From Bacteroidales bacterium (lineage in GTDB: Bacteria > Bacteroidota > Bacteroidia > Bacteroidales > UBA3824), in contig JAFPYT010000071.1 in the NCBI GenBank assembly GCA_017394445.1, positions 25,005 to 89,004 of the forward strand: DNA of 64,000 bases. Reading direction: 5' to 3'. A model generated the notes under the pieces. The model was given only the letters and a program-made list of their open reading frames with translations. It did not search any database and was not told where the DNA came from. Below, piece after piece: positions 3,722 through 62,869 of this stretch. How positions within the stretch are numbered: the stretch's first letter is position 1; each line of letters opens with the position of its first letter. The position numbers and the translations under genes were made by a program.

Positions 3722-6187
3722 ATGATGAACAACTTCGTTAAAATTAGCCTATTAACCACCTTGTTGATGGTATCGGCGCAAATATCGGCACAAACAAAAG
3801 TGCGTGGAAGCGTTACAGATGCCGAAACAGGCGAGCCTCTGCCCTTTGCCAACGTGGTATTCCCTGGTACCACTATCGGCACTATTACCGACCCCGACGG
3901 CAATTTCTTTTTGCAAACACATGCCGATGTGGATTCCATATCATTCTCGATGCTCGGTTACGACACCTACACTTTGGCAATTGCCCGCAATTCGTATCAA
4001 GAAGTTAACGTTACCCTTACCCAAGGCGGTGTAACGCTCAACGAAATCATTGTCCGTCCTGGCGAAAACCCCGCATGGCGCATTATGCGAAACGTGGAGG
4101 CAAACCGCAAGAAAAACGACCCATCGCGTTTCGACGGATACAAATACCAATGCTACAACAAGATGGAAATCGACCTGAGCAACGTTAACAGCGGACTCAC
4201 CCGTAAGGGAATAATGAAAAACTTCGACTTTGTGATGAACTATGCCGACACCTCTGCCGAAACAGGTAAAGTATTTCTTCCAGTGTTTATAACAGAAACA
4301 TTGTCAGATGTTTACTTTAAGTCATCTCCACAAAAGAAAAAAGAGGTTATAACGGCAAGCAGAGTGTCGGGCGTAGAGAGTGCGCAAGTGTCGCAATACA
4401 CAGGTCAGATGTTTATCGACGTAAATATCTACAAAAATTACATTCCAGCATTTGGACACGACTTTGTGTCGCCAATATCCGACTATTGGAAAGCCAATTA
4501 CAAATACTATCTGCTTGATTCGGTTTACGAAGACGGACATTACCTCTACCACCTTGCATTCAAGCCCAAACGAAAACAAGAGTACACATTTCACGGCGAC
4601 CTTTGGATCAACGACACCACTTGGGCTGTAAAAAAAGTAACCGCCAAAATGAGCAACGATGTCAACGTCAACTACGTCAACAACATGTCCATTTCGCAAG
4701 AATACACATTCACCGATTCGGTGTGGTTTTTGAAAAAAGAAGAACTGTTTGTAGACTTTAACCTAACCGACAGCACCACAGGATTGTTTGGACGCCGCAC
4801 AATGTCGCGCAAGGATATTGAAATCAACCCCGAATTTGACCAAAGCACATTTTCGGCATCGTCTACCGACGAAACCATTGTGCTCGACGATGCCCTCAAC
4901 CGCGACACTTCGTTTTGGAATATAAGCCGTCACGAACAACTCTCAAAAAAAGAACAAGACATCTACGTAATGGTAGACTCTATCAAAGAAGTGCCTATAT
5001 TCCACACCATTACCAACACCATAAATATGTTTATAACAGGCTATTGGAATTGGAAATGGTTTGAGATAGGTCCTTACTTTAAATTTTACAGCCACAACCC
5101 TATTGAAGGACATCGGTTTAGGTTTGGCGGACGCACAAGCAACGAGTTAACCACCGATATCAAGTTTAACGCGCACGTGGCTTACGGCACCGACGATAAA
5201 AAATTTAAATACGGCGCAGGGTTTATCTATATGGTAAACAAAGCCCCGCGACGAACAATAGAACTGCAATACAAATACGACTACGAGCAACTTGGGCAGT
5301 CGATAAACGCATTTAGCGAAGACAACATCCTCACCAACCTCCTCGCCCGCAAAAAAAACGACAACCTGCTGCTTGTTAAAGAACTTTATTATAATTACGA
5401 AAACGAATATTTTCAAGGATTCTCTAACACTGTGGGTGTAAAATACCGCAAACTTTACCCCTCGAAGATAATCCCCTTTACCAACGAATCGATACAGGTA
5501 GATTACAGCAACATAACAAGTTACGAACTCACTCTCAACACCCACTTCTGTTACAACGAAAAATTTGTGGCAGGGCAGTTTTTCCGCGTTAGCATGTCGA
5601 GCGACTATCCTATGCTTGATATTAACGCCACTGTGGGCTTGTGGAACAACCGAGGCAACTACGACCGCTACTACCGTTTTACAGCATCGCTGCAACAGCA
5701 AGTGTCGATAAGTCCGATTGGCAAGTTGAAATACCTCATAGAAGCAGGCAAAGTGATTGGCACAGTGCCGTTTCCGCTGCTGAAACTCCACGAAGGCAAC
5801 GAAACCTACGCATTCGACACCTACGCCTTTAATATGATGAACCTCTACGAATTTGCCTCTGACACATACCTCAGCGCAACGGTAGAGCACCATTTCAACG
5901 GATTTTTTCTCAACCGCATACCGCTAATGCGCAAACTCAAATGGCGCGAAGTGGCATACGCCAAAGGACTTGTGGGCGATATTTCGGTAAAAAACAGCCG
6001 CGAACACGCAATACTTGATTTTCCATCGTCGCTTGGAGATGTCAACAAACCCTACGCCGAAGCCGGTGTGGGCGTGGAAAACGTATTCAAGTTTTTCCGT
6101 GTAGATGCCATTTGGCGTCTTACACACCGCGATGCTCCCGACATCACCAAATTTGCCGTAATGCTAAAAATGCAAGTAATATTATAA
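3722..6187 (+). CDS. DUF5686-family protein with an N-terminal CarboxypepD_reg-like domain (outer-membrane-associated)
   Basis: A signal peptide (MMNNFVKISLLTTLLMVSAQISAQ) is followed by KVRGSVTDAETGEPLPFANVVFPGTTIGTITDPDGNFFL, a carboxypeptidase-regulatory-like fold. The long, aromatic-rich C-terminal region is typical of DUF5686. Confidence 0.7.
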   Translation: MMNNFVKISLLTTLLMVSAQISAQTKVRGSVTDAETGEPLPFANVVFPGTTIGTITDPDGNFFLQTHADVDSISFSMLGYDTYTLAIARNSYQEVNVTLTQGGVTLNEIIVRPGENPAWRIMRNVEANRKKNDPSRFDGYKYQCYNKMEIDLSNVNSGLTRKGIMKNFDFVMNYADTSAETGKVFLPVFITETLSDVYFKSSPQKKKEVITASRVSGVESAQVSQYTGQMFIDVNIYKNYIPAFGHDFVSPISDYWKANYKYYLLDSVYEDGHYLYHLAFKPKRKQEYTFHGDLWINDTTWAVKKVTAKMSNDVNVNYVNNMSISQEYTFTDSVWFLKKEELFVDFNLTDSTTGLFGRRTMSRKDIEINPEFDQSTFSASSTDETIVLDDALNRDTSFWNISRHEQLSKKEQDIYVMVDSIKEVPIFHTITNTINMFITGYWNWKWFEIGPYFKFYSHNPIEGHRFRFGGRTSNELTTDIKFNAHVAYGTDDKKFKYGAGFIYMVNKAPRRTIELQYKYDYEQLGQSINAFSEDNILTNLLARKKNDNLLLVKELYYNYENEYFQGFSNTVGVKYRKLYPSKIIPFTNESIQVDYSNITSYELTLNTHFCYNEKFVAGQFFRVSMSSDYPMLDINATVGLWNNRGNYDRYYRFTASLQQQVSISPIGKLKYLIEAGKVIGTVPFPLLKLHEGNETYAFDTYAFNMMNLYEFASDTYLSATVEHHFNGFFLNRIPLMRKLKWREVAYAKGLVGDISVKNSREHAILDFPSSLGDVNKPYAEAGVGVENVFKFFRVDAIWRLTHRDAPDITKFAVMLKMQVIL

Positions 6188-6426: not shown

Positions 6427-7829
6427 ATGGGCATAGTATTAGGAAGAGATTACGAGGTAAAAGCTTTGCAAAAATGTATGAAATCAGACCGCTCGGAATT
6501 AGTATTGGTTTGTGGACGACGCAGAGTGGGCAAAACATACCTCATAGAACAGTATTTTGGCAAAAAATACGCATTTAGTTTTGTAGGTGGACATAATGCG
6601 CCGCCCGAAATACAGCTGCGCAATTTTAAAAAAGCCCTTATACAATACGGCAAATTTACAGTTGCACCCGAAATTAACAATTGGTACGATGCTTTTGATG
6701 CCTTAGAACTAATATTAACCAAAGGACGTAACCGCAAAAAAGTGGTATTTATCGACGAAATGCCTTGGATCGACAATCCTAAATCGCAGTTTGTTGCCGC
6801 ATTAGAAAACTTTTGGAACGGTTTTGCCGCCCGTCGCAACGATATTGTTTTTATTGCCTCCGGCTCTGCCACATCGTGGATGAACGACAAGATAATCAAC
6901 AATCAAGGAGGTCTGCACAACCGCGTTACGCTGCAACTTTATCTAAAACCATTTACCCTAAAAGAAACCGAAGAATATCTTTTGAGCAGAAATTTCGCCG
7001 ACGACCGTTACCAAATGGTTCAAACATATATGGTTACAGGTGGTGTACCATATTATCTAAGCCTATTGGATAGCGGAATGAGCATAGCACAAAATATTGA
7101 TGCCTTGTTTTTTAATCAAAAAGGCGCATTAAGAAACGAGTTTACCGAATTATATCCTGCATTATTCAAAAATTCAGACAATTACGTTTCGATAGTAAGA
7201 GCATTAAACCAAACAAAATCGGGACTTACCCGCTCGCAAATTTCGCAAGCCACAGGCATAGAAGGTGGTACGCTTACCAAAATACTCCGAAACCTCGAAC
7301 TATGCGACTTTATAAAGAGTTTCGCTCATTTTGGACGAAGCACCAAAGACTGCGTTTACCGTTTAACCGACTTTTACTCATTATTTTACTTCCGTTTTTT
7401 AGAAAGCGACACATCTATGGACGAAAACTTTTGGACACACAACCTAAACCATCCATCCATAAATGCGTGGCAAGGAATAACCTTTGAAACCGTTTGTATG
7501 ACGCACATCAAACAAATAAAAGAGGCGTTAAAATATCCGGAATATCCACAGAAGTAAGCACTTGGCGCAACGAAAACGCACAGATAGACCTTGTAATAAA
7601 ACGCGCCGACCGTATGATAAACCTCTGCGAAATAAAATTTTGTACATCGCTCTACACCATTACAGCCGATTATGCCGCACATTTGCGACAACGTCAAACC
7701 GACTTTGTGAATGCAACAGGCACTCGTTATGGGATATGTAACACATTTATAACATTATACGGAGTAGACAAAGGCAAAAACACAAGCGTAATGCAGTCGG
7801 AAATTACAGCCGCAGATTTGTTTTTATAA
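6427..7829 (+). pseudogene. ATPase_2/DUF234-type AAA ATPase, frameshifted (paralog of 61421-62869)
   Basis: ORFs 6403-7557 and 7494-7829 together align end to end with the intact 482-aa paralog: Walker A is GRRRVGKTYL in both, and the C-termini are IDLVIKRADRMINLCEIKF vs VDLVIDRADGVINLCEIKY. The frame changes at the A-run 7530-7533 (...GCG TTA AAA | ATA TCC GGA would need 5 A's but only 4 are present). Confidence 0.6.
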
Positions 7830-7926
7830 CGGTAGAAATAATTTTCTAAAATTTTTCCGCAAAATAATGCACCGTATTTAAAAAAATAGTTGTAACTTTA
7901 AACACTATTTTTAAGCACTAATTACG

Positions 7927-10416
7927 ATGGCAACAAAAAAAGTAATCAACACCGCCGACTTGCGCGAATACCGCCCACTAATATGGTACGGAGAACCCGT
8001 GCACGCAAGGTTTTCACAATTGGAAACCATCTTAAAAAACGGTCTCGGAGGGTTTTACCCAGAGTTTTTGGCTGAGCCACTTATCACTTCGGGACAAGCT
8101 CGATGGATGAGCGCGGCTGTGCCCAACGGCGTACCTTTTTCGCAGTTGCCTCCCGACAAACAAGAACAGGCAAGGGTTAACCTGCAAGTAATGCTCAACA
8201 AAATCAAGGCGTTTGCGCAGGAACTGTCCGAAGCCGGCGACCCCCACCAAAAAGAACTCGGCGAACTGCTGCTTCTTGCCATCGAAGTGCCGTCGCTCGA
8301 TTCGGTAATTGTTGATGGCGAACGTATTGTGCTCACTATCTGGGGATTCAGCAGCGAAGAATCGCAGAAGGTAAACTTTAAACTCGATGCAAAAATCGAA
8401 AAACCTGTTGCCGCCGCTGCCGCCTCCATACCTACTATATCGCAACCTGCTCCGCCCGAACCTCCGAGCGCAACAGTTACACAGAGTTCAACTCCTACCC
8501 CACCACCTTCACCGCAGAATCCTCCTGAGCCTCCGCAACATACAATGCAGACTCAGAATTCTGGTGCAACGCCGCCTCCCCCGCCGCCAACTCCTCCTAC
8601 CAATAATGACGGCAAGAAAAAAGGCCTGCCAGGATGGCTATGGTTTTTGTTTGGACTGCTGCTCGCATTGCTGTTGGTATGGCTCTATTTCCATTTTTTT
8701 GGCAAGCCCGACCCTAAGGACAACACCACCGACAACAACAATCCCGGTCAAAACGACCCACACACACCCGGCGACTATACCAATATTCTGCCCGAAAACC
8801 CTAACGTGATACCACCTATCGACACCACGCGCATTATCGTTGACCCCGACGACCCCGGTCAGCGCCGTGTGTTTTCTGATAAGGTAAACATCGCCCTCAA
8901 CAAAGGCGTTAACGCAATGGCGTTTGCCCAAAAACTTTACGATCAATATGCTGAGCAACTAAAAATCGTATACTGCGACACCGTTATAAAACTAATGCAG
9001 GTAGAAACTCCCGAAGGCGAGTGGAAAGATTGGATGACCAAGCTCAAAGCAATGGACGAGGTAAAACTGGCATTCTCTAACACAATGTTTTCGAGCGAAT
9101 ACAAAGCATCCGACCCAGCATTCAGCGATGCAAAAAAGTCGTGGTATTTTGAAACCGTTCAGGCATACAAGGCTTGGGACATTACCCGAGGCAGTGCCGA
9201 CGTGATAGTGGCTGTGGTAGACAACGGATTCGACCTCAACCATCCCGAAATCAAAGACAAAATAGTATCGCCCTACGACATCACCACAGGCGAAAGCCGC
9301 GTTACACCCTGCGGAGGCGAGGGCAACGAACACGGCACTCACGTGGCAGGCACGGCTGTGGGCAGCGGCAACAATGGTCAGGGGCTCTGCGGAATTGCTC
9401 CCGAATGCAAACTTATGCCCATCAAGATAGCCGACGAATACGGCAATATGCAAACGATTTCGGTGGTGGCAGGCATACTCTACGCTATTCACCATAATGC
9501 CAAAGTGGTGAACCTTTCACTCGGAACATATTTTGGCGAAGACATTCTTTCGATGCCGCTTAGTGAGCAAAACCAATTAGCACACAACGAATATCCCGAC
9601 GAGGCACAGTTTTGGAACGACCTTTTTCAGTTTGGACTCGACGAAGACATAGTGCTTGTGATAGCGGCAGGCAATCAAAACATTATCACGGGCATCGACC
9701 CCTTTGCACGTTCGCCCAAAACCCTCACCGTTTCGGCATATCAAAAAGGCGGAAAACCCAAGGCAGAATTTAGCAACCACGGCGAATTTGCCACCATTTC
9801 GGCACCGGGCGTGGATATTTACAGCAGCGTTCCGGGAGCAAAGTTTGAATATTTAGACGGCACAAGTATGGCGAGCCCCATAGTGGCAGGCGCGGCAGCA
9901 TTGATGCGTTCGGCACATCCGCACATCAAAGCCGAAGACATTGTTGCCATTCTTAAAAAAACCGCAAAACCTCTCAACAGCAATCCTCAAATAGGTCCGC
10001 TGTTGCAAATCGAAGACGCATTGAAAAGTCCCGGAGGCGTGCTCAACATTCCCGACAACGCCACCAACGCCGATTTTGCGCAAGGCAAGTGGAAATCTAC
10101 CACCGACCTTTACAGCACCAAAGATTCTGTGGACATAATGTTGTTCTTTACCTTAGAAAACGGCGGCAAAGGCACAATAACCTATTCGCAATCAGACGGA
10201 AAGGATTTTCGTGCACCGCTTACCGTATCGTTTGAAAACGGCAAATTGGTAATGAACCAAACATCAGAAGCCACCAACGACGACTATCCCGACGATGGAT
10301 ACCACCCATACAAATTCACCTGCAAGCAAGACGGCAACAAAACCGACGGAGCCAACTGCCAAGCCGAATTTGAAGGCGAACCATCAGTAGGATTTAAAAT
10401 GATTAAAATACTATAA
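7927..10416 (+). CDS. Membrane-anchored S8 (subtilisin-family) serine peptidase with a novel N-terminal module (cluster gene 1)
   Basis: Catalytic motifs are VAVVDNGFD (Asp), HGTHVAGT (His), AAGNQN (oxyanion Asn) and GTSMASPIVAG (Ser). An I9-like propeptide segment lies upstream. The ~150-aa N-module has no signal peptide and is followed by a Pro-rich linker, KKKG, and the TM helix LPGWLWFLFGLLLALLLVWLYFHFF. An extra ~150-aa C-terminal domain follows the protease. Confidence 0.85.
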   Translation: MATKKVINTADLREYRPLIWYGEPVHARFSQLETILKNGLGGFYPEFLAEPLITSGQARWMSAAVPNGVPFSQLPPDKQEQARVNLQVMLNKIKAFAQELSEAGDPHQKELGELLLLAIEVPSLDSVIVDGERIVLTIWGFSSEESQKVNFKLDAKIEKPVAAAAASIPTISQPAPPEPPSATVTQSSTPTPPPSPQNPPEPPQHTMQTQNSGATPPPPPPTPPTNNDGKKKGLPGWLWFLFGLLLALLLVWLYFHFFGKPDPKDNTTDNNNPGQNDPHTPGDYTNILPENPNVIPPIDTTRIIVDPDDPGQRRVFSDKVNIALNKGVNAMAFAQKLYDQYAEQLKIVYCDTVIKLMQVETPEGEWKDWMTKLKAMDEVKLAFSNTMFSSEYKASDPAFSDAKKSWYFETVQAYKAWDITRGSADVIVAVVDNGFDLNHPEIKDKIVSPYDITTGESRVTPCGGEGNEHGTHVAGTAVGSGNNGQGLCGIAPECKLMPIKIADEYGNMQTISVVAGILYAIHHNAKVVNLSLGTYFGEDILSMPLSEQNQLAHNEYPDEAQFWNDLFQFGLDEDIVLVIAAGNQNIITGIDPFARSPKTLTVSAYQKGGKPKAEFSNHGEFATISAPGVDIYSSVPGAKFEYLDGTSMASPIVAGAAALMRSAHPHIKAEDIVAILKKTAKPLNSNPQIGPLLQIEDALKSPGGVLNIPDNATNADFAQGKWKSTTDLYSTKDSVDIMLFFTLENGGKGTITYSQSDGKDFRAPLTVSFENGKLVMNQTSEATNDDYPDDGYHPYKFTCKQDGNKTDGANCQAEFEGEPSVGFKMIKIL

Positions 10417-39338: not shown

Positions 39339-42300
39339 ATGAACACGCATAACCAAATCAAACTTGACAATGTGCCAACAATAGGCCTACATTTAAAAAC
39401 AGTGCTTTCTTTATTAATTATAACGCTGTTTTTAAACGCAGAATCGTATGGACAAAAACTATTCAAAGCCACATATACAAACAAAGAGGGTGAAGAACAA
39501 ACTCAAGAGTTCGACAAACTTGAAGACGCACTTGACGATAATAATTATTGGACTCACTATCCAGAAGAAAATCTATACTGGTTTCCTTTAGAAGTAACAA
39601 TCACACAAACACAAGATGATAATTACTATGTTAATAAACAAACACTATCTCCTGGAATACTAAAAAGTCCAGATAGTGGGAATATGCGCACTGGAGTAAA
39701 ACGTTATATCCTTAATCTACAAAACGTGTCTTTTCCCGAAAACGCTGAAATCAATGTTAAAGGATATGGAATAATCATTCAAAACATTATTCTAAATAGC
39801 CCTCTAATATTCAATATACCCTCTGGTCCTGTCTTAGAGATTAAAGGTGGCACATTCAATCGAAAAGTATCATTTGTTGGAACAGAAAATAAATATTATG
39901 GAATCTTGGAAATTTCTGGAGGAACTTTCACTAATGGACAAAATGATGATTGCGCTTTATCGATTGAAAACATATATAGTGTAGAGGTATCAGGAGGCGA
40001 TTTTCGTTATCAAACAAGTACAAGTAGCAATTTAGATGTAAGTGGGCCTACTGCTTTCAAAGTTGTATCTAACCGCAATGATATAAAAATTACAGGTGGC
40101 ACCTTTGGTCCAGCAAACCCTGATGCTAATATTAATGGAACAGGATTACTTGTAGAAGCATTTGCTGGTATTATGAAAATTTCAGGAGGAACTTTTAAAG
40201 GTAATCCGGGTGCAATAAAAAATATAACAGGCAAGAGTATTATCGACCCACAAGCATCTTTTGTTGATATCAACGGTTCAGTATTCACCGAAAACTACAA
40301 TAGTTCATATCTGCTTGCTGACGGTAGTGGTAATCCTTTTGGAGAATCTTCAGTTGGAGGTTTTGGTCAATATCTCGAACTTTCTAACGAAGGTAAAACC
40401 CTCACCTTTAAATATGGGCTATTGCCTGAACCATTCGGAGATAACATTATTGAATTAAAGTATTTACAACAAACACCCGGAAAAGATTGGAGCAAGGTAG
40501 AAACCGTAGTTTTTGATCAATCTTATACCGATAATGTATTACCTACATCTTGTGCATTTTGGTTCTCTAATTTTGAGAATCTCAAAGAGATTCAAAACTT
40601 AGACAAACTTAATACAAGCCAAGTAACCAATATGTATGGTATGTTTATGAATTGTTCTTCGCTTGAAACAATCGACATAAGCACATTCAGCACGGCATCA
40701 CTCAAAAAAGACCAAGAAGGAGAAACCGTTGGCATCAAATATATGTTTTACGGGTGCAAAAAACTAAAATCCATTACATTGTATAATCCAGAAACACCAT
40801 CCGTACATTTCACGCCCAACAGTAATATAACTTCGCTTTCTGGCATATTTAGTGATTGCAATGTCCTCGAAACCATCGATTTGAGTTACTTCGATATCGG
40901 CACAAACATAACTGATATGTCGCAAATGTTTTACAATTGCAATACAATTACCACACTCGATTTGTCAAAATTTAACACAAACAATGTAACAGATATGTCT
41001 GCAATGTTTTATTATTGCAATAACCTGACAACAATTTTAGTAGATCAAAATAAATGGAAAACCAACGATGGAACAAACACAAGTGCTATGTTCAGTGGTT
41101 GTATCAACCTCATCGGTAACAATGGCACTCAATACGATGACTCACAAACTTCTGGAGACTACGCCCACATTGATGAAGGTCAAGACAATCCAGGCTACTT
41201 TACAACTGGTTCGTACAAAATAATCTACGACCTTGATGGCGGTGAAGAAACAGGAAACCCAACTTCATTACCTCTATCTGGTGCAACTTCTGATATTACC
41301 CTTACAAAACCTACAAAAGAAGGATATTTCTTTACGGGATGGTCTGGCACGTCGGCCACCGGTTTATCGGGTGATAATAATACGAATGTTTCTATTCCGA
41401 AAGGAAGCAAAGAAAATAGAAAATATACTGCAAACTGGGCTCAAGGAAAACCTTACGCTGTTGTTACTGAAACTGAAGGCACAAAAAAAATGACGTTTTA
41501 CTATGGTGTAAAACCTGAAAACAATTCTACGCAAACAGTTCTCACTATTTATCAGGATGAGAATTTCGATTCTGAAATATTTAATAATTGGAAACAAAAC
41601 AGAGGAGATGTTATAGAAGTAATATTCGATGAATCGTTCAAAAAATGTCAATTAACTACTTGTAGCGGCTTATTTGCAGGATTTTCATCCCTTACAACAA
41701 TAACCAACATTGAAAATTTTGATGCATCACAAGTAAAAGATATGAATCAAATGTTCTCTGGGTGTTCTGCATTAGAAAGCATGGATTTTTTAAAAAATAT
41801 CAAAACATCTAATGTTACAAATATGTCTAAGATGTTTCAAAACTGTTCGAAGTTAGAAAGCATTGATTTTTTAAATAATATCAATACATCTAAAGTAGAA
41901 GATATGTCTTATATGTTCAATGGGTGTTCTGCATTAAAAAGAATAGATTTAAACATCAACACAGAAAAGGTTACAGATATGTCTGAGATGTTCCAAGAGT
42001 GTTCTTCATTGATAAGTGTAAATTTAGACATCAACACATCTAATGTTAAAGATATGCATTGTATGTTTACTGATTGCTCATGGCTAACTGACATCACATT
42101 CGGTAATGACTTTACAACTGCTAATGTTACGGATTGCGGTGGTATGTTTTATGGTTGCACAAACCTGACGAAACCAATAGATATGTCATTGTTTGACCTT
42201 AGGCTTTGTGAAGGCTATTTGGGTGGTGGTATATTTATGAATACAGGTTATACAAATATAGTCCTTAAAGAGTTTAATATTCCAGAAGGTATAACTTCAA

Positions 42301-43634
42301 TGCACCAATGGTTTCAAAGATGCGAAAAACTGGAAACTATTGATCTTAGAGATGTTGACATTTCATCGGTAAAAGATTTTAGTTATATGTTTGCACAATG
42401 TGAAAATCTCAAAACTATCATTGTTGACAAAGACTGGAAAATAAACAACGATGCTGTTTGCGATGGTATGTTCTCACGCTGTTTTTCTCTTGAGGGCAAA
42501 TATGGAACTAAATACGATGAAGGCAAAACAGATGGACAATACGCCAGAGTTGATAGTGATGGTGCTCCCGGCTATCTATCCGACGGAATATACACAATAT
42601 CCTATATTCACAAAGATCAAAACGGCGAGACTATAAACATCACACTTGATAATAATTATCCAACAAAATATACCTACGATGATAATGACATTACCATCAA
42701 CAAACCAACTCAAATGCCAGGTTATTCTTTTAAAGAGTGGAAGTACACAATATCAACCGACAAGGACAATATTCTTACTGGAGACCAAATAATTATTCCT
42801 CATAATTCTGTAGGCAACTATGAGATAACTATCACATGGGACGTAGAATCTAAAATCAAAATCATCCCGTCAACAGATTTCATCTCATTCCCCACAGATT
42901 GGAAAAAATTCTGCAAAAAACAAGAAACAGAGGCAATACTAACTTACAGTCTTGCTGAGGGTAGCGGCGAACCAAAAAATTGTATTATCATTATAGAAAC
43001 TATTGAAGGTAGTGTTAATTACGAAACACAAAATGGCGAAGTGCATATTTCTACATTGCCCACCCCCCCAGGAAAATACAATTGCTCTGCAGTGTTTGTG
43101 GGCGATGAAGAATCTACAACTCCATCAGACACCATCAAATTCACTTTAGAAATCACCGCCGCACGTGGATTAATTTTGCAACTATACAAAAACGTGATTT
43201 TCGTCAACAATAGTAGCGAAAAGTTTGAAACATACCAATGGTATCGCTACGGAGAAGAAACCGACGAAAAACTCAAAAACGGTGAACGCCAATACTTCAC
43301 CGAACCCACTCTCAAAGGCTCGTATTGGGCATTGCTCAACGGCAAAATTCACGCCTGCTATATGGAAGACCAACCCGTGATTGTAAAGCAAGCCGAGGTG
43401 TCAATCTCAACCTACCCCAACCCTGCCGTAGAAGGCGAGCAGTTTACCATCGAAATCAACAATTTTGACCCTGATACAGAATACTCTTTGATAATATCCA
43501 ATAGCAACGGCAATATAATAAAACAACTAACCGTTACAAAAAAGCAAACCACACTCAGCCTGCCTCGTGGTTTTTACACAGGTGCGTTGATGTGGTCGGG
43601 CAACAAACAGTCGTTTAAAATAATAGTGAGGTAA
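39339..43634 (+). CDS. Giant BspA-type leucine-rich-repeat (DUF285) surface protein with Listeria-Bacteroides repeats and a T9SS C-terminal sorting domain
   Basis: There are many DUF285-type repeats (VTNMYGMFMNCSSLETIDIS, VTDMSAMFYYCNNLTTI, VKDMNQMFSGCSALESMDF...). List-Bact repeats include YKIIYDLDGGEETGNP...TKEGYFFTGWSG and YTISYIHKDQNGE...MPGYSFKEWKY. The C-terminus ISTYPNPAVEGEQFTIEINN...FKIIVR is T9SS CTD-like. Confidence 0.8.
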   Translation: MNTHNQIKLDNVPTIGLHLKTVLSLLIITLFLNAESYGQKLFKATYTNKEGEEQTQEFDKLEDALDDNNYWTHYPEENLYWFPLEVTITQTQDDNYYVNKQTLSPGILKSPDSGNMRTGVKRYILNLQNVSFPENAEINVKGYGIIIQNIILNSPLIFNIPSGPVLEIKGGTFNRKVSFVGTENKYYGILEISGGTFTNGQNDDCALSIENIYSVEVSGGDFRYQTSTSSNLDVSGPTAFKVVSNRNDIKITGGTFGPANPDANINGTGLLVEAFAGIMKISGGTFKGNPGAIKNITGKSIIDPQASFVDINGSVFTENYNSSYLLADGSGNPFGESSVGGFGQYLELSNEGKTLTFKYGLLPEPFGDNIIELKYLQQTPGKDWSKVETVVFDQSYTDNVLPTSCAFWFSNFENLKEIQNLDKLNTSQVTNMYGMFMNCSSLETIDISTFSTASLKKDQEGETVGIKYMFYGCKKLKSITLYNPETPSVHFTPNSNITSLSGIFSDCNVLETIDLSYFDIGTNITDMSQMFYNCNTITTLDLSKFNTNNVTDMSAMFYYCNNLTTILVDQNKWKTNDGTNTSAMFSGCINLIGNNGTQYDDSQTSGDYAHIDEGQDNPGYFTTGSYKIIYDLDGGEETGNPTSLPLSGATSDITLTKPTKEGYFFTGWSGTSATGLSGDNNTNVSIPKGSKENRKYTANWAQGKPYAVVTETEGTKKMTFYYGVKPENNSTQTVLTIYQDENFDSEIFNNWKQNRGDVIEVIFDESFKKCQLTTCSGLFAGFSSLTTITNIENFDASQVKDMNQMFSGCSALESMDFLKNIKTSNVTNMSKMFQNCSKLESIDFLNNINTSKVEDMSYMFNGCSALKRIDLNINTEKVTDMSEMFQECSSLISVNLDINTSNVKDMHCMFTDCSWLTDITFGNDFTTANVTDCGGMFYGCTNLTKPIDMSLFDLRLCEGYLGGGIFMNTGYTNIVLKEFNIPEGITSMHQWFQRCEKLETIDLRDVDISSVKDFSYMFAQCENLKTIIVDKDWKINNDAVCDGMFSRCFSLEGKYGTKYDEGKTDGQYARVDSDGAPGYLSDGIYTISYIHKDQNGETINITLDNNYPTKYTYDDNDITINKPTQMPGYSFKEWKYTISTDKDNILTGDQIIIPHNSVGNYEITITWDVESKIKIIPSTDFISFPTDWKKFCKKQETEAILTYSLAEGSGEPKNCIIIIETIEGSVNYETQNGEVHISTLPTPPGKYNCSAVFVGDEESTTPSDTIKFTLEITAARGLILQLYKNVIFVNNSSEKFETYQWYRYGEETDEKLKNGERQYFTEPTLKGSYWALLNGKIHACYMEDQPVIVKQAEVSISTYPNPAVEGEQFTIEINNFDPDTEYSLIISNSNGNIIKQLTVTKKQTTLSLPRGFYTGALMWSGNKQSFKIIVR

Positions 43635-54660: not shown

Positions 54661-57564
54661 CTACAATCCATCAACCATAACAAACGCTGCCCAATTTTGT
54701 GGTTCGGGATAGCGTTGACGAGTGATGTTTTGTGCCGAAACAAAGGCGGCACGTTTGGATTGTCCGGCGGTAAGGTTTTTGAAAAACTCGGTCATAAGCA
54801 GCTGCGTGGCTGAGTCAGAAACATCCCAAAGACTCATCACAATGGTTTGCGCACCAGCTTTTTTAAATCCACGTTGAAGTCCAAAAACTCCTTCGCCTGT
54901 GATTTCGCCAAGTCCCGACTTGCAAGCCGATAGCACCACCAAATCAAGTCCTCGGAAATCAAGACGTGATATTTCGCGAGCAGTAAGTATACCGTCGTCA
55001 AAGCCTTCGGGTATAATGCTGTTTTTCAACGGGTCGAGAGCTGTATTTGCTCCGGCAAAGAGTAATCCGCTGTAAGTGAGCGAACGGTCTTCGCTGCTCT
55101 GAGTTGCCATCAACGACGAAGGCATCAAATCTGCCACAAAATCAGACTTATAGAAACCGTGCGTGCCAATGTGAAGTATCTTTAATCTACTGCCTGATAG
55201 TTTTTTGAAACTATCTTCAGTGGCGGTGCGACCCGATTGCTCGCTAACAGTGTAGTTGGCATTGCGTAAATATTTGGCAATGGTTTCTGATTCTATTTTT
55301 GAGCCACGTAGAAATCCTGCCACAGCACCTCGAAGAGTATCGCGACTATCGATAAGATTTAGCCAATCTTCGTTAGAAAAATCGTATTCAATTCCACCGT
55401 ATGTGGCAGCCTTGCGGTCGGGGTTAATTTGCTGTTCGATAGCGATTTCGCGCGTTGACGATAGACGGTAGGCATCGTATTGTTCGGCAAAAATGGTTCC
55501 TTTTTCGGTGCGAAGATATTCGATAGCGATATTGTGAAAACGTCCTGCAGGCGAAAAATAAACGTTTTTTACACCTTGAAGATATTTTTCCAATGGTTTC
55601 CACACAAGGTTGTAAAGTTTGGAAGTGGTGTAATATTCTGATTTTTTTACGTTCCACATATCCGATTGTTTAAAAAGCGTTACCACTTGGGGAGTGTCCA
55701 TACCTTTTTTAAGCACAAAAGCCATAAAGATACGCTCTTTGTTAGCGTCTTTACATTCGGCAAATTCTATGGCTAAATCGTTATTCTTCAAGTGTTTTTG
55801 TATTTCTCTATAATCAATCGAAAGGTTGTGAGTATAGTTACCCAAATTACTCGACGACAGCACCAGAGCTCTTTCTTCAGCTTCGATTGCATTGGCAAGC
55901 GAATCGGCATTCATTGTGCGTTCAAGTATATTGGTTTTCAGAAGGTTGTCGAGCAAGCCACGATTTTGACGTATCTTATAATAACGTCTCAAAAGTGTGC
56001 TGTCGGTGCTCTGTTGCAATATTTTTTGAATTTCGAGTTCGGTATTTAGCAGCAAACCTTTGGAAAAAACTTGCGAATTGTAAGCTAAAACCGCCGCCTC
56101 CCCTCCCATCGAGAGCGAATCAGCCAATGGCGATAGTTTATAAACAGCGTAAGGAAGGTCGAGCACAAAAAATTCGGCATATTTATTCCAAAAATCTGTA
56201 CGCTCTTTATAGGTCATCAACAGAAAGTTTTTGAGTATAAACGCTTTAATGCGATCGTAAGCCTCGCTGTAATAATCTGCCGATTTGGCATAATTACCCG
56301 CATAAAGATTGATTTGAGCCAATTTGCTGAGCGATATGGCATAATCGGGATGGTTTTCGCCCCAAACGTTCTTTCTGATTTGCAGCGACTTATGCTCAAG
56401 GTCAATAGCCTCAGGATATTGTTTAAGTTTGTAATTATATTCGGCAAGATTGCCCAACACAGCAGCGTAATTGGCGTGCTGCTCGCCATAAATATTTTTT
56501 TCAATAGAAGATGCGCGGGTGGCAAGTCGAATAGCGTATTTATAATTGCCTGCCTGCGCATAATATGATGAAAGGTTGATTAACGCACCCGAATAGTCGG
56601 GATGGTTGTCGCCAAAATTGTTTTCAAAAATTTGCAACGCCTTAAGTCCCAATTGAATAGCCTCGGCAGTGTCGCCAAGTACGCATTTAAAACCAGCAAG
56701 AGTTTTTAAAGATATGGCATAATGCGGATGCTGTTCGCCCAAAATAGTTTTGCGAAGTTGCGTGGCGCGGGTTTCGAGTTTTACAGCCTCGCGATAGTTG
56801 CCTATGGTGTAATAATATCCCGCAAGATTGTGTAGCGAAAGCGCATAATCGGGATGAGTTTCACCCAAAACCTTGCCTATCGACTCCAAAGCAAATTTTT
56901 CAAGTCTGATTGCCTCGGTGTAATTACCTGAATATAAATTATAATAGGCAAGATTTTCTAAATAATAAAAGTAGTAAGGATGGTCGTCGCCCAAGATATT
57001 TTTAGCCGCTTCGATAGCTGATGTTACCAATTTTATCGCGTCGTCATGGTTACCCAATGCAAAATAATACGAAGCAAGGTTTCCCAACGCCATTACATAA
57101 TTGTCGCCACGATAGTTGAGCCGTTGGCGCACCTCTAATGTGTATGCCTGAATGTCGGCGGCAGAGATAAATTTGCCAAGTTCGCATAAAAACAAGGCGC
57201 AGTTTTCCATCGCGCTCAAATACTCTTCGTGCTCGGCACCGTAAACTGTTTTGCAAAGTTGCGCGGCATATTCGCCTACACGGAGGGCTTCGGAATAATT
57301 GCCGTTATAATAATGATACTCTGCAAGTTTGCCTACCGATTTGGCATATAGCGGACTTTTTTCGCCCGCACCTTGTTTATAAAGATCAGATGCCAACGTT
57401 CCAAGCCTTACCGCTTCGGGATAGTTAACAGTATCTATATTATAATCAGCAAGTTTCTCATAATTCGATGCTTCTGCTAAAAGCGCTTTGCGTTGTTTTT
57501 TAGATGTTTGTGCCGACACTGCAAACGGCAATATCAGCAGCATTATCACAATTATTTGCTTCAT
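54661..57564 (-). CDS. Secreted TPR-repeat + CHAT (caspase-like) domain protein
   Basis: The signal peptide MKQIIVIMLLILPFAVSAQ starts at ATG 57564. About 9 TPR units follow (...YSGNYTEAIRL..., ...TIGNYREAVKL...). The C-terminal CHAT region reads LHIGTHGFY...LVVLSACKSGLGEITGEGVFGLQRGF. Confidence 0.8.
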   Translation of the reverse strand: MKQIIVIMLLILPFAVSAQTSKKQRKALLAEASNYEKLADYNIDTVNYPEAVRLGTLASDLYKQGAGEKSPLYAKSVGKLAEYHYYNGNYSEALRVGEYAAQLCKTVYGAEHEEYLSAMENCALFLCELGKFISAADIQAYTLEVRQRLNYRGDNYVMALGNLASYYFALGNHDDAIKLVTSAIEAAKNILGDDHPYYFYYLENLAYYNLYSGNYTEAIRLEKFALESIGKVLGETHPDYALSLHNLAGYYYTIGNYREAVKLETRATQLRKTILGEQHPHYAISLKTLAGFKCVLGDTAEAIQLGLKALQIFENNFGDNHPDYSGALINLSSYYAQAGNYKYAIRLATRASSIEKNIYGEQHANYAAVLGNLAEYNYKLKQYPEAIDLEHKSLQIRKNVWGENHPDYAISLSKLAQINLYAGNYAKSADYYSEAYDRIKAFILKNFLLMTYKERTDFWNKYAEFFVLDLPYAVYKLSPLADSLSMGGEAAVLAYNSQVFSKGLLLNTELEIQKILQQSTDSTLLRRYYKIRQNRGLLDNLLKTNILERTMNADSLANAIEAEERALVLSSSNLGNYTHNLSIDYREIQKHLKNNDLAIEFAECKDANKERIFMAFVLKKGMDTPQVVTLFKQSDMWNVKKSEYYTTSKLYNLVWKPLEKYLQGVKNVYFSPAGRFHNIAIEYLRTEKGTIFAEQYDAYRLSSTREIAIEQQINPDRKAATYGGIEYDFSNEDWLNLIDSRDTLRGAVAGFLRGSKIESETIAKYLRNANYTVSEQSGRTATEDSFKKLSGSRLKILHIGTHGFYKSDFVADLMPSSLMATQSSEDRSLTYSGLLFAGANTALDPLKNSIIPEGFDDGILTAREISRLDFRGLDLVVLSACKSGLGEITGEGVFGLQRGFKKAGAQTIVMSLWDVSDSATQLLMTEFFKNLTAGQSKRAAFVSAQNITRQRYPEPQNWAAFVMVDGL

Positions 57565-59976: not shown

Positions 59977-59984
59977 TAATTTTG
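59977..59984 (+). promoter_or_regulatory. Bacteroidota -7 promoter box (TAATTTTG) for tRNA-like RNA 1
   Basis: Lies 13 nt upstream of the first base of the acceptor-stem sequence. Confidence 0.45.
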
Positions 59985-59996: not shown

Positions 59997-60155
59997 GCGG
60001 GAATAGCTTAGTGGCAGTAGCAACGGAAAATTCTTAAACTTTGTTTTAAAAGTTTTCAGAAAGTTAGTTGCGTAAATCTCCAATGGTTAGAGCACACACG
60101 GTCGGTCATTAATTAATATGGTGTGAAGACACGAGTTCGAATCTTGTTTCCCGCT
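59997..60155 (+). ncRNA. tRNA-Gly-derived tRNA-like RNA, long form (159 nt), not a canonical tRNA
   Basis: Acceptor GCGGGAA/TTCCCGC + T73, D stem GCTT/GAGC, stem CACAC/GTGTG, variable loop AAGAC, T arm ACGAG-TTCGAAT-CTTGT. The D loop carries a 62-nt structured insertion between GTGGCAG and CCAATGG. The 'anticodon' loop is 21 nt (GGTCGGTCATTAATTAATATG). It has its own -7 box and a T-run (CTCTTTTTTT) at the 3' end. Confidence 0.6.
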
Positions 60156-60246
60156 CTTTTTTTCTTTTCACCTTTCATATTTTATAGTTTATTTGTAAAT
60201 TAACGCATCTTGCCGAGACCTTGCCTTGAAGATAGAGCCAAGTTTT

Positions 60247-60594
60247 TTACACTGCGTAAGTGTCTGCAAGATATTTCAAAAAAGAATCGCTGATATTGTC
60301 CATTTCATTTTTGTCATAGATATAAAGCAAAGAGATATTAATATCGTTTTCTTTTGATTCCAACACGTTGACAACCATTGTTATAACCCTTGCGCCACCG
60401 CTCTTGCCCTTGCCTTTTGAACTTATTTGCATGCGAACCTTCCTCATTCCGTGTCCGGGACTTGCCCCGAGATAAGGATTTTCAAGTAGTTCTTGTTCAA
60501 AAGCCTTCAAATCGTCCACAAAGGACTTGTATTTTTTTTTGAGTTTTTTTGCACTTTCCTTGAATTCAACTGAAACTTCTTTGATTCTGTTCAT
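60247..60594 (-). CDS. RelE/ParE-superfamily (HigB/Gp49-like) type II toxin
   Basis: 115 aa, with the motif GKGKSGGARVITMV and the ending ...LLYIYDKNEMDNIS. Its ATG overlaps the upstream stop (ATGA). Confidence 0.7.
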   Translation of the reverse strand: MNRIKEVSVEFKESAKKLKKKYKSFVDDLKAFEQELLENPYLGASPGHGMRKVRMQISSKGKGKSGGARVITMVVNVLESKENDINISLLYIYDKNEMDNISDSFLKYLADTYAV

Positions 60595-60896
60595 GCTCCT
60601 TTCTCCAACTCTTTCAGAAAATCATCATAATTCTGCATTGTTGACTTGCCTTCTTGCGACTCCTTAAACGCCCTCATTGCATTGCTAATCCCTTGCGCAA
60701 TCTTTTGGTCTCGTTTGGTATAGTTAGACGGCAAGGGTACACGTTCACCGTTGGGCGCAGTGATATACAACGGCTCTTTTTTGAGTAGGCTGTTGACGTA
60801 TTTTGCGATGCTTTCGATTAGTTCATCGCTGTCTATCGACATTATTTTGTGTATAAGAGATTCGCGATTTCTCTCCAATGTCATTGTTGCTTCCAT
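60591..60896 (-). CDS. Putative antitoxin (101 aa)
   Basis: I prefer ATG 60896 (MEATMTLERNRESL...), because a -7 box lies 26 nt upstream and the longer track ORF would run through it. It overlaps the toxin start by 4 nt. Confidence 0.55.
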   Translation of the reverse strand: MEATMTLERNRESLIHKIMSIDSDELIESIAKYVNSLLKKEPLYITAPNGERVPLPSNYTKRDQKIAQGISNAMRAFKESQEGKSTMQNYDDFLKELEKGA

Positions 60897-60921
60897 AATA
60901 AATTCTTTTAGATTGACATGG

Positions 60922-60929
60922 CAAATATA
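60922..60929 (-). promoter_or_regulatory. Bacteroidota -7 promoter box (TATATTTG on the minus strand) for the TA pair
   Basis: The reverse complement of CAAATATA lies 26 nt upstream of ATG 60896. Confidence 0.4.
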
Positions 60930-61089
60930 AAAGTTTTTCGGGGCGCATACAAATGTAAAAGTAATTTTTTCACAAGTGGAAATAAGAATATAACGAAATC
61001 GGTTAATAGTCAGAATAATACATAACATGCGCGTCAAAAGTGGGTTGCAAAACACACCAGCAATAGTTTGTGGAAAGAAAAAATATTTC

Positions 61090-61097
61090 TAACTTTG
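61090..61097 (+). promoter_or_regulatory. Bacteroidota -7 promoter box (TAACTTTG) for tRNA-like RNA 2
   Basis: Lies 13 nt upstream of the acceptor-stem 5' base, the same spacing as for copy 1. Confidence 0.45.
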
Positions 61098-61109
61098 CGA
61101 CACTTAAAT

Positions 61110-61218
61110 GCGGGAATAGCTTAGTGGCAGAGCATTATTCTGCCAATGGTTAGAGCACACACGGTTGGTCATTAATTATTATTGTGTGAAGACACGAGTT
61201 CGAATCTTGTTTCCCGCT
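61110..61218 (+). ncRNA. tRNA-Gly-derived tRNA-like RNA, short form (109 nt), not a canonical tRNA
   Basis: The scaffold is the same as in 59997-60155: the first 21 nt are identical and the last ~85 nt nearly so. The D-loop insertion is only 12 nt and forms GGCAGA-GCATTA-TTCTGCC. The loop is 21 nt (GGTTGGTCATTAATTATTATT). CTCTTTTTTT follows. Confidence 0.6.
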
Positions 61219-61263
61219 CTTTTTTTCCCCTTTCTTATATTAAAATTACTATCAATTATATTG

Positions 61264-61378
61264 CGATAGTTGCTCCGTAACTCTAAAAAAAACATAGTTA
61301 CGGAGCAAGTATCGCCGATACATACTCCGTAAGTCCTAAAAAAAATGAGTTACGGAGCAAGTATCGCTTGTTTTTTTG
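61264..61378 (+). repeat. Two tandem related hairpins (CGATAgTTGCTCCGTAACT/AGTTACGGAGCAAgTATCG type); the second is followed by a T-run
   Basis: Hairpin 1 has arms at 61264-61282 and 61296-61314 with the A-rich loop CTAAAAAAAACAT. Hairpin 2 has arms at about 61314-61334 and 61347-61366 with the loop CTAAAAAAAAT. CTTGTTTTTTT follows. Confidence 0.7.
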
Positions 61379-61420: not shown

Positions 61421-62869
61421 ATGGCGCAAAACTACATTATAATAGGTCGCAAGGAAGAACAGGCACTCTTCAAAAACTATTTGGATAGTTCCAAAGCCGA
61501 ACTCATCGCTGTATATGGACGCAGACGAGTAGGCAAAACTTATCTCATTAAAAGTTATTTCAAAGAGAAATTCGACTTTGCTCTTTCGGGTTTGTACAAC
61601 GTTACAAAAACGGTGCAACTAACTCAATTTCAAAAAAAGTTGGAAGAGTATTCGGGTAATGCTGTTAAACGTCCAAAAGATTGGTTTGAAGCCTTCGACC
61701 TTTTGTCAAAATATTTAGACACTCTAAAAAAAGACAAAATCATCGTTTTCCTTGACGAAATTCCGTGGTTAGACACACCCAAAAGCAATTTTTTGGCGGC
61801 ATTCAGTCAGTTTTGGAACGATTGGGCGTCAATGAAACCCAATTTCAAACTCTTTGTCTGCGGCTCGGCTACCACGTGGATGCTTTCAAAATTCATAGGC
61901 GACAAGGGCGGAATTTACGGACGTGTAAGCCGCTCGATTTGGCTCCGTCCATTCACGCTTTTAGAAACCCAAAAATTCCTAAAAGAAATCAAAGGCATCG
62001 ACCTCAACCAAAAACAAGTATTGAGCATTTATATGGTTTTGGGCGGAATACCGTACTATTTGGATATGTTAGTAAAGGGCAAACCGTTGGATGTGAATAT
62101 CGACGAATTGTTGTTTCAGGAGGGTGCTCCGTTGCGTCCTGAATTTGATTTCCTGTTTCGGTCGTTGTTTCTCAATTCCAAAATATACCGCTCAGTGGTA
62201 ACAGCATTGTCGCAAAAATTAAAAGGCCTTACTCGTCAAGAACTTATAGAAATTCTCAAAATCAAAGAAGGCGGAATGTTGACCGAGGCGTTGGAAAACC
62301 TTGCAAAATGCGATTTTATCCGCAAATATTCAGCAATAGGTAAGACCGAAAGAGATGCTATGTATCAATTAACCGACTTGTTTTCATTGTTTTATCTCAA
62401 ATTTATATCTGCCGACAACGGTCAGGAACAGCATTTTTGGACTAAAATGTCAGGTAAGCCACAAATGATTGCGTGGAGTGGTTATGCTTTTGAACAAGTG
62501 TGCCTAAATCACACCGAGCAAATAAAGAAGTCGCTCGGTATCAGCGGTATGGTAAGCAATATTTATTCGTGGAGTTGCCGTCCGTTTACCGACAAAAACG
62601 GTGCAGAATGGCAAGGTGGACAGGTGGATCTTGTAATCGACCGTGCCGACGGAGTAATCAATCTTTGCGAAATCAAATATGTGTCGGGCAAATACGCCAT
62701 TGACACTCAATACGCTGAACATCTGAGAGAACGTGCATCACTTTTTAGCGTTGTTACCAAAACCTCCAAAGCCATACATCACACATTCATAACTACTTAC
62801 GGCATTAAACAAAACCAAAATAGCGACATCGTGCAGTCGGAGGTAACAGCGGAAGGTTTATTTGAGTAA
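61421..62869 (+). CDS. ATPase_2/DUF234-type AAA ATPase (intact paralog of the 6427-7829 pseudogene)
   Basis: Starts MAQNYIIIGRKEEQALF. Walker A is YGRRRVGKTYL and Walker B is IIVFLDEIPW. A winged-helix-like mid region precedes the DUF234-like C-terminus VDLVIDRADGVINLCEIKY. Confidence 0.8.
   Translation: MAQNYIIIGRKEEQALFKNYLDSSKAELIAVYGRRRVGKTYLIKSYFKEKFDFALSGLYNVTKTVQLTQFQKKLEEYSGNAVKRPKDWFEAFDLLSKYLDTLKKDKIIVFLDEIPWLDTPKSNFLAAFSQFWNDWASMKPNFKLFVCGSATTWMLSKFIGDKGGIYGRVSRSIWLRPFTLLETQKFLKEIKGIDLNQKQVLSIYMVLGGIPYYLDMLVKGKPLDVNIDELLFQEGAPLRPEFDFLFRSLFLNSKIYRSVVTALSQKLKGLTRQELIEILKIKEGGMLTEALENLAKCDFIRKYSAIGKTERDAMYQLTDLFSLFYLKFISADNGQEQHFWTKMSGKPQMIAWSGYAFEQVCLNHTEQIKKSLGISGMVSNIYSWSCRPFTDKNGAEWQGGQVDLVIDRADGVINLCEIKYVSGKYAIDTQYAEHLRERASLFSVVTKTSKAIHHTFITTYGIKQNQNSDIVQSEVTAEGLFE

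Follow-up and report, generated by a model that had tools for sequence, protein, structure and literature searches.

To our knowledge, non-decoding bacterial tRNA mimics amount to a few cases, namely tmRNA, YrlA, tRNAOther and the cell-wall tRNA-Gly of Staphylococcus. Here, we describe two tRNA-like genes of 159 and 109 nt in a 64-kb stretch of DNA from a rumen Bacteroidales bacterium (contig JAFPYT010000071.1; the whole stretch of 64,000 nt is referred to as the window). The two genes belong to a lineage-specific family of RNAs that derive from tRNA-Gly, are most likely non-decoding and would be transcribed independently. Such a family would add an architecture to those already described: a fusion amounting to "1.5 tRNA" that lacks an anticodon and bears a hairpin in the pocket of the D loop, arranged in arrays, held by purifying selection and diversified in a modular way. 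In the engineered tRNA scaffold that Ponchon and Dardel are said to have described in 2007, the anticodon loop was reportedly replaced by an arbitrary hairpin and the product was processed and protected like a tRNA. Type VI of the present family has the same intact tRNA body with a hairpin for an anticodon loop. The engineered scaffold is synthetic, however, whereas the design seen here is natural and diversified, and has a second insertion site in the D loop.

The non-proteinogenic tRNA-Gly species of Staphylococcus, which are donors for the peptidoglycan bridge, carry changes at T-stem pairs 49-65 and 51-63 and escape EF-Tu (PMC9976931). The family resembles them as a tRNA-Gly paralogue presumably kept out of translation, with the same T-stem pairs differing from those of E. 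coli. The staphylococcal species have a UCC anticodon, a normal length and Fem transferases, whereas the family has no anticodon and no Fem-like gene nearby, retains G18G19 and belongs to a Gram-negative host. Polycistrons of irregular or allo-tRNA-like genes have been described beside toxin-antitoxin (TA) genes in Acidobacteria and soil; some have an extra stem/loop (a "five-stem junction" or "E-loop"), and translation apparently makes no use of them (Mukai et al. 2017, PMC5389517). Tandem non-standard tRNA-like genes, often beside TA modules, are common to both. The irregular tRNAs, however, have an 8/4 or 9/3 acceptor/T geometry, long variable arms and real anticodon loops, in contrast to the 7/5 geometry, the tRNA-Gly origin, the extra hairpin inside the D loop and the missing anticodon of the family.

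The tRNAOther of Bacillus cereus is a chromosomal pseudo-tRNA beside a variable island, thought to be a small-RNA regulator and not used in translation (PMC3399842). It differs from the family in being a single gene of normal size and unrelated sequence, charged by a LysRS1/2 complex and without modular arms or arrays. The tRNA-like domain of tmRNA, as well as YrlA, imitates the top half or elbow of a tRNA and, like the family, lacks an anticodon. tmRNA is set apart by its tag reading frame, its pseudoknots and the alanine identity pair G3.U70, whereas the corresponding pair in the family is G3-C70; ARAGORN called no tmRNA in the window and neither copy matched an Rfam tmRNA model. YrlA uses its RNA ends for the Ro-binding stem and has a closed "acceptor", whereas the ends of the family RNAs form the acceptor stem and no Ro60 gene lies nearby. 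Literature on tRNA-like RNAs of Bacteroidales and Prevotella, on anticodon-less tRNAs and on decoy or anti-phage tRNA-like RNAs yielded no account of the family, and Rfam holds no separate model for it.

Architecture of the two genes and their family

The first-pass annotation of the window had described two copies built on a common scaffold, each with a TAnnTTTG box 13 nt upstream and a T-run tail. The coordinates, the lengths and the scaffold all proved exact, and the signals can be read in the sequence. The parts of the two genes are as follows:

59977-59984, + strand: Bacteroidetes -7 promoter box of copy 1, TAATTTTG; G1 lies 13 nt past the end of the box
59997-60155, + strand: tRNA-like gene copy 1, type I, 159 nt, matched by the Rfam tRNA model and the family model R1
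59997-60003 / 60148-60154, + strand: acceptor stem of copy 1
60006-60009 / 60090-60093, + strand: D stem of copy 1
60013-60081, + strand: D-loop hairpin of copy 1
60082-60089, + strand: canonical D-loop remainder of copy 1, AATGGTTA
60095-60125, + strand: anticodon-less arm of copy 1 (CACAC, 21-nt loop, GTGTG)
60131-60147, + strand: T arm of copy 1, with U73 at 60155
60156-60169, + strand: T-rich tail of copy 1, CTTTTTTTCTTTTC, immediately 3' of the discriminator; presumed terminator or 3' trailer
61090-61097, + strand: -7 promoter box of copy 2, TAACTTTG; G1 lies 13 nt past the end of the box
61110-61218, + strand: tRNA-like gene copy 2, type II, 109 nt, matched by the Rfam tRNA model and the family model R1
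61110-61116 / 61211-61217, + strand: acceptor stem of copy 2
61119-61122 / 61153-61156, + strand: D stem of copy 2
61126-61144, + strand: D-loop hairpin of copy 2, GGCAGA-GCATTAT-TCTGCC
61145-61152, + strand: canonical D-loop remainder of copy 2, AATGGTTA
61158-61188, + strand: anticodon-less arm of copy 2
61194-61210, + strand: T arm of copy 2, with U73 at 61218

The first 21 nucleotides of the two copies are identical and about 75 at the 3' end nearly so; a single 50-nt block sets them apart, and the length difference lies wholly in the D-loop hairpin. A 24-nt string from the T arm and acceptor stem occurs at two places in the window, which are the two copies, where none would be expected by chance. 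Each window gene has a T-run on its 3' side, as does each family member at the related loci. The gene that leads an array at the related loci always has a perfect TAnnTTTG box at 12-nt spacing, and the boxes of internal genes are degenerate. A genuine tRNA-Leu gene at 39108 has a promoter of the same type (TACATTTG), and its CCA is likewise not encoded.

When compared with Rfam, both copies matched the tRNA model RF00005, with 46.9 bits for copy 2 and 34.7 bits for copy 1 (threshold 29), in alignments that skip insertions of 41 nt in one copy and of 75 and 21 nt in the other. No other Rfam family matched near either copy. ARAGORN had been expected to make no call; indeed it called neither window copy as tRNA or tmRNA, but it did label the shortest members of the family (93-94 nt, none of them in the window) as tRNA-Trp (cca). 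The family model R1, a covariance model built from 18 copies, gave 161 bits for copy 1 and 119.5 bits for copy 2, and found nothing more in the rest of the window. The minimum-free-energy fold of copy 2 had a z-score of -2.9.

Relatives were collected by a pattern scan of one genome per species of the Genome Taxonomy Database (GTDB), by a metagenome scan and from contigs fetched through neighbouring proteins. The metagenome hinge pattern was swamped by genuine tRNA-Trp genes, so that all family counts are lower bounds. (The D arm GCTCCAAYGGTTAGAGC of genuine tRNA-Trp genes from many environments, L007-L126, is the same as the family hinge; the type I hinge is CUCCAAUGGUUAGAGC.) The covariance-model search of rumen Bacteroidales contigs gave at least 24 copies, with at least 17 distinct sequences in about six types and a length of 93-161 nt. 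The type with the 21-nt loop was found in five GTDB species representatives, all of them rumen Bacteroidales metagenome-assembled genomes (MAGs), from sheep, yak, red deer and other hosts. Arrays of two to three genes are present at four loci (L005, L020, L125 and L142). A type is made up of one D-loop hairpin (four kinds) and one "anticodon" arm (six kinds):

D-loop hairpin modules: two short versions, one of them 19 nt; two long, unrelated versions (about 60 nt)
"Anticodon" arm modules 1-3: 5-bp stem with 21-nt loop; 7-nt loop UAUGUAG; tetraloop CUUG
"Anticodon" arm modules 4-6: 5-7-nt loop; 16-bp AU-rich hairpin in two versions

Across the family, the D-loop hairpin ranges from 19 to 69 nt, and the anticodon loop is replaced by 4, 5, 7 or 21 nt or by a long hairpin of about 40 nt. 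The long D hairpins of types I and III have their lower stem in common, in which GCAAC/GUUGC changes to GUAAC/GUUAC in a compensatory manner.

R1 found nothing in the syntenic loci of more distant Bacteroidales relatives, nor at loci of diverged TA or ATPase homologues. Phage and plasmid collections gave no blastn match and no viral contig carried the family-specific patterns; an origin in phages or plasmids was rejected, since no member occurs in these collections. The arm sequences were not found outside the tRNA-like genes in about 1 Mb of related DNA, and the possibility that they are dispersed repeats or miniature inverted-repeat transposable elements was rejected on account of this confinement. 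A blastn search of the E. coli genome gave chance matches only. One viral contig (L006, IMGVR_UViG_3300046656_000751) has a different odd tRNA-Gly-like gene at 4400-4480 on the - strand, which scored 49.6 bits with R1 and received no call from ARAGORN. It has the same acceptor stem, normal D and T arms and an encoded CCA, and its "anticodon" stem of 7 bp (CTCTTAC/GTAAGAG) carries a 12-nt GC-rich loop.

The core of a tRNA is intact in all 17 variants by reading of the sequences, including U8, A14, G15:C48, G18G19 and the T loop. The geometry comprises a 7-bp acceptor stem, a 5-bp T stem, a variable loop of 4-5 nt and the T loop GTTCGAATC (pattern GTTCRANYC). The D-loop hairpin sits between U16 and G18, the pocket that varies in length in normal tRNAs. 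In the fold that we adopt (fold A, that of the first-pass annotation), positions 10-13 of the D stem pair with a distal GARC and enclose a hairpin with a GGCAG/CUGCC base. All four D-stem pairs are formed in 17/17 variants, and the hairpin base has 5/5 pairs in eight of the nine variants outside type I and 4/5 in L125b; the base in type I has lost one G and has a bulge. Fold A is also the minimum-free-energy fold of the 93-nt type. The hairpin base is conserved across types, and the distal part differs among types and is conserved inside a type. None of the 17 variants has an anticodon loop of the form U33-NNN-R37, so that the absence of a usable anticodon loop, first noted for the window copies, extends to every member.

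The cloverleaf is kept by compensatory changes. In the alignment of the 17 distinct sequences, 94.7% of cells were paired, compared to 35-63% in slid controls, and two-sided changes were seen at five pairs: the D-stem pair C11-G24, which becomes U11-A24, and four pairs of the stem in the place of the anticodon stem (variants CACAC/GUGUG, CGCAC/GUGCG, CACAU/AUGUG and CCAGC/GCUGG). By contrast, none of the 12 acceptor and T-stem pairs covaries, and pairing in the two helices is 100% and 98.8% family-wide; the constraint on the top half therefore extends beyond pairing to the sequence itself. G1-C72, C2-G71 and G3-C70 are invariant except for one G1.U72 (L058). The T-stem pairs A49-U65 and G51.U63 are likewise invariant, where E. 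coli glyV has G.U and G-C, and these are the positions altered in the S. aureus species (PMC9976931), as had been proposed. The acceptor-side glycine identity set attributed to the genes is present in both window copies but is not constant in the family, owing to the G1.U72 pair and to the discriminator, which is U73 in types I-III and part of type VI and A73 in types IV and V and the rest of VI (5/17 distinct sequences).

The ARAGORN label of the 93-94-nt members (L005 619-711, L015 1151-1243, L020 1754-1846, L058 2809-2902 and L142 10167-10259) corresponds to an alternative fold, fold B, with a local D arm, an anticodon stem UAUUC/GGUUA, a loop UGCCAAY and a long variable arm. We rejected fold B, which requires G33, a U.U mismatch and a D stem with 3/4 pairs and is not conserved in the family: its D stem has only 1-2/4 pairs in type I, L125a and L137, and in type III the D stem has 3/4 and the would-be anticodon stem 2/5. 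The tRNA-Trp label is a misannotation, and MAG annotations probably contain it. The annotation of rumen MAGs would thus be affected in two ways, with tRNA finders either missing the family genes or mislabelling them as tRNA-Trp.

Selection and origin

The type I gene of the window has an orthologue (L002) from which it differs at 4/159 positions (155/159 identical) and at 0/78 positions of the scaffold. In the same pair of contigs, the third codon positions of the adjacent esterase/nucleotidase gene are 19.1% divergent (80.9% identity) and the 53-nt spacer is 23% divergent, corresponding to a binomial P of ~2e-10 for the whole RNA and ~1e-8 for the scaffold. The 93-nt type is identical at 93/93 positions in three contexts, in which the upstream 120 nt are 51-87% identical. 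In the most diverged type I copy (L001), which is at a different chromosomal site, 11/11 changes fall in the arms. One distal pair of the type I D hairpin passes through the series U-A, U.G and C-G, and the apical loop is the most variable part of this hairpin. By comparison with the neighbouring third codon positions, the sequences are under purifying selection and are not decaying pseudogenes.

The derivation from tRNA-Gly was upheld. The tRNA-Gly(GCC) sequence given in the first-pass annotation agrees with glyV of E. coli MG1655, and the family aligns with it. The acceptor stem GCGGGAA/UUCCCGC is identical to that of tRNA-Gly, and the first 37 nt of copy 2 and of the 93-nt type are colinear with positions 1-38 of tRNA-Gly(GCC), including the loop sequence CUGCCAA. 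Past this part, the sequence is like that of a second tRNA-Gly, starting with the D loop; a real tRNA-Gly(UCC) of an unrelated contig has a similar D loop (AAUGGYUA in the family) and a similar stem (CCAGC/GCUGG in the family). The colinear 5' part followed by a second tRNA-Gly body indicates that the D-loop "insertion" is a gene-fusion remnant. On this sequence evidence the gene is a fusion of about 1.5 tRNA-Gly genes, and the "insertion" is what is left over from the first. The hairpin described in the first-pass annotation is thus real, but it is not foreign sequence; rather, it is the remainder of the tRNA-Gly(GCC) 5' half, CUGCCAA included.

In this fusion, the 5' part of a tRNA-Gly(GCC) (positions 1-38) was joined to a second tRNA-Gly body, from the D loop to position 73. 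The CUGCC of the old anticodon loop is paired with GGCAG (the former G18-G22) in a hairpin that leaves the core through the variable pocket of the D loop, and the second copy of the D loop (AAYGGUUA) provides G18 and G19 for the elbow. Shared with the canonical tRNA-Gly species (GCC and UCC) are the acceptor stem, U8, the D-stem and T-loop consensus, C50-G64, the variable-loop length and, in both window copies, U73. The family differs from them in the lack of an anticodon loop, the sequestration of CUGCC in a hairpin, the second D-loop copy, the changed T-stem pairs 49-65 and 51-63, A73 in some members and a greater length.

Possible modes of action

This description of the RNAs, in structure, family, selection and origin, is far more secure than any mechanism; their expression, maturation, charging and partner are what we infer from the genes. 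Because the tRNA core is intact and the gene architecture matches that of the tRNA-Leu gene, transcription and tRNA-like maturation are expected. Transcripts would start from their own promoters a few nucleotides upstream of G1, be cut by RNase P, have the U-tail trimmed and receive CCA, as for the CCA-less tRNA genes of this genome. The matured RNAs would persist as stable, non-decoding tRNA mimics with the normal L-shape and two outward arms, one formed by the D-loop hairpin and the other at the anticodon position.

Since the acceptor/T-arm top half alone is frozen in sequence while the other stems tolerate compensation, action via the acceptor end, T arm and elbow is most likely. The RNAs would work through factors that read these parts of tRNA-Gly, either as competitors or decoys or, if charged by GlyRS, as carriers poorly bound by EF-Tu, and the type-specific arms would be add-on recognition modules. 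Such a mimic of the tRNA-Gly top half is the mechanism that we tentatively favour, and we consider it plausible, if somewhat short of probable. It is preferred for the frozen top half, for the Staphylococcus-like T stem and for the existence of readers of the acceptor end alone, as exemplified by the TacT toxin, which reads tRNA-Gly via U73 and G71 only. A role as non-ribosomal aminoacyl donor, one of those suggested in the first-pass annotation, would call for a lowered EF-Tu affinity, which the T-stem pairs 49-65 and 51-63 may confer, but finds no tRNA-dependent transferase or second GlyRS nearby; the scanned window genes and the neighbours at related loci included neither a tRNA-dependent transferase (Fem, MprF, CDPS or similar) nor an extra synthetase, and Ro60, reverse transcriptase and integrase genes were likewise absent from them.

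Several observations count against the top-half mimic. The variation of the discriminator between U and A and the single G1.U72 are a poor fit with a single reader of the acceptor end, be it bacterial GlyRS or a TacT-like enzyme. No anticodon loop displays C35/C36, and the one CC derived from there is paired in the stem of the D-loop hairpin. Charging by GlyRS is uncertain for both of these reasons, the missing C35/C36 and the U/A discriminator among paralogues. No partner gene is conserved, as TA, ATPase and esterase/nucleotidase homologues of up to 88% identity occur without the RNA genes. The pair counts (94.7% and five two-sided changes) come from an alignment that was fitted to the model, and near-identity across contexts could be due in part to recent recombination or transfer rather than selection. 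Finally, the arms are also conserved within a type, and the D hairpin has only 3/59 changes compared to a neutral divergence of ~19%. A pure top-half mimic leaves this within-type conservation unexplained, and it is better explained if the tRNA body serves as a scaffold.

According to this first alternative, the RNAs are tRNA-scaffolded regulators, in which the body supplies processing signals and nuclease resistance and the arms base-pair with mRNAs or bind proteins. The arms are wholly different between types and conserved within a type across species, the modules recombine independently (hairpin d2 with arm a1 or a6, d4 with a4 or a5), and the U-A, U.G, C-G series keeps the distal D-hairpin pair. 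The long hairpin on the anticodon stem of type VI also copies the engineered tRNA-scaffold design. One candidate for such an arm is the 21-nt loop GGUCGGUCAUUAAUUAUUAUG, antisense to an AU-rich start region ending in AUGACC. However, complementary targets in the 64-kb window were chance-level 11-mers at most, and the search for base-pairing targets there returned only self-matches and chance-level 10-12-mers. Within the type I D hairpin, it is the apical loop that varies most, several types present a mere tetraloop or 5-nt loop, and a mere scaffold does not need acceptor and T stems that are invariant at the sequence level. Taken together, we regard regulation from a tRNA scaffold as a rather unlikely alternative, though it is the main rival.

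The top-half mimic and the scaffold could be combined in a modular natural tRNA-scaffold platform, possibly glycylated but kept from EF-Tu and the ribosome, that acts as decoy or carrier in defence-island conflicts; this we consider doubtful. Such a platform would carry interchangeable hairpins at the D-loop pocket and the anticodon position and be matured by the tRNA pathway, and the acceptor end of tRNA-Gly might be protected or diverted, for example from toxins that read the acceptor end alone. The family would also provide a natural test of how much of the tRNA body the maturation and charging machinery needs, and of the use of tRNA bodies as scaffolds or decoys by bacteria.

It is distinctly improbable that the genes are non-functional or selfish relics, that is, duplicated chimeric tRNA pseudogenes kept alike by gene conversion, whose use would at most be to recombine and move cargo, the TA module for instance, within variable islands. 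The copies do flank variable cargo, identical copies occur in different contexts, and the flanks are reshuffled between genomes, with the toxin-leading flank TTTTCACCTTTCA found 3' of type I, IV or V in different contigs. The distribution is narrow (the five rumen species representatives), and the loci hold genes of the defence-island type. Yet the RNA genes diverge far less between orthologues than do adjacent third codon positions and spacers, helices are preserved by compensatory changes, promoter boxes are kept at fixed spacing, and the nucleotides for tertiary interactions are intact in 17/17 variants; moreover, the arm sequences occur nowhere else in ~1 Mb of related DNA and no integrase lies nearby.

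That these are real decoding tRNAs, with a class-II-like fold and a UGCCAAY loop or as precursors spliced to tRNA-Gly, is hardly credible: ARAGORN labels the 93-94-nt members tRNA-Trp, the 5' 37 nt hold an intact CUGCCAA loop sequence and Rfam aligns copy 2 with a local D arm, but the ARAGORN fold needs its unconserved G33, U.U mismatch and 3/4 D stem, neither window copy is called, there is no 3' strand to pair with the would-be anticodon stem flanking CUGCCAA, and the inserts of 4-51 nt fall far short of the size of a group I intron, with no intron family match at E up to 10. A tRNA containing a group I intron was rejected for the same lack of a match, for the sizes of the inserts (4-51 and 19-69 nt) and for the absence of sequence that could restore an anticodon stem and loop.

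Genomic neighbourhood

The window is ordinary chromosome (leuS, prs, L25, pth, rpoN, asnA), with the RNA genes in a variable patch. The features around them are:

60247-60594, - strand: RelE-like toxin gene, 115 aa, convergent with copy 1; Pfam PF06296 at E 2.9e-5, below threshold
60591-60896, - strand: putative antitoxin, an open reading frame (ORF) of ~101 aa from the ATG at 60896, overlapping the toxin start
61263-61370, + strand: two tandem copies of a strong hairpin element with a 13-bp stem, GTTGCTCCGTAACT...AGTTACGGAGCAA (GCGATAGTTGCTCCGTAACT...AGTTACGGAGCAAGTATCGC), closing the array
61421-62869: ATPase_2/AAA protein, downstream of copy 2; full-length match to PDC-S27, a candidate defence family of PADLOC, E 4e-191

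The putative antitoxin matched nothing in Pfam or NCBIfam; its promoter region and that of copy 2 are divergently oriented, and antitoxin and toxin are conserved as a pair in L058 and L125. At five loci (L015, L058, L125, L137 and L142), a toxin homologue of 92% identity or more is next to a tRNA-like gene or no farther than ~4 kb from one, and the RelE-like TA pair adjoins tRNA-like genes in the window and at the last four of these. No tRNA-like genes accompany TA homologues of 59-86% identity, and we rejected a functional link to the RelE-like TA pair for this reason. The pair accompanies the RNA genes at 92% identity or more and does so no longer at 86% or less, so that the association may reflect mere shared ancestry of one island. 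A link to the PDC-S27-like ATPase was rejected as well, because homologues of 76-88% identity lack tRNA-like genes, as was synteny with the upstream esterase/NT5C gene, whose homologues of 61-83% identity have no RNA gene downstream.

The hairpin element that closes the array in the window is also present 3' of the array-final tRNA-like gene in L005, L020, L038 and L142, and is probably both the terminator of the array and the carrier of the promoter that comes next. The sequence of its 3' end, TATCGCTTGTTTTTT, is found again a short way upstream of two promoters, those of copy 1 and the ATPase.

In related contigs, the RNA genes lie between other housekeeping genes, with an IetA-like ATPase, dynamin/DUF4407 genes, a caspase-like protein or lipoproteins as neighbours. 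In L142, the region between two tRNA-like genes (6584-9747, - strand) holds four small unannotated ORFs (92-141 aa) and the IetA-like AAA ATPase (PADLOC IetA, E 1.7e-30), with no IetS-like protease recognised there. In L004, an inserted 1.5 kb separates the esterase/NT5C gene from the tRNA-like gene and contains, at ~7390-7440, several copies of the short tandem repeat GGCGTAATAAAT; this insertion is not present in the window or L002. Two genes upstream of the RNA genes of the window, at 54661-57564 on the - strand, is a large protein with TPR and CHAT (caspase-like protease) domains and no PADLOC match. The CHAT protein, the TA pair and the PDC-S27-like ATPase give the patch a defence-island flavour. 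A second ATPase_2 paralogue lies at 6427-7557, and a 1431-aa protein with five DUF285 repeats (39339-43634) is directly downstream of the tRNA-Leu gene and its terminator.

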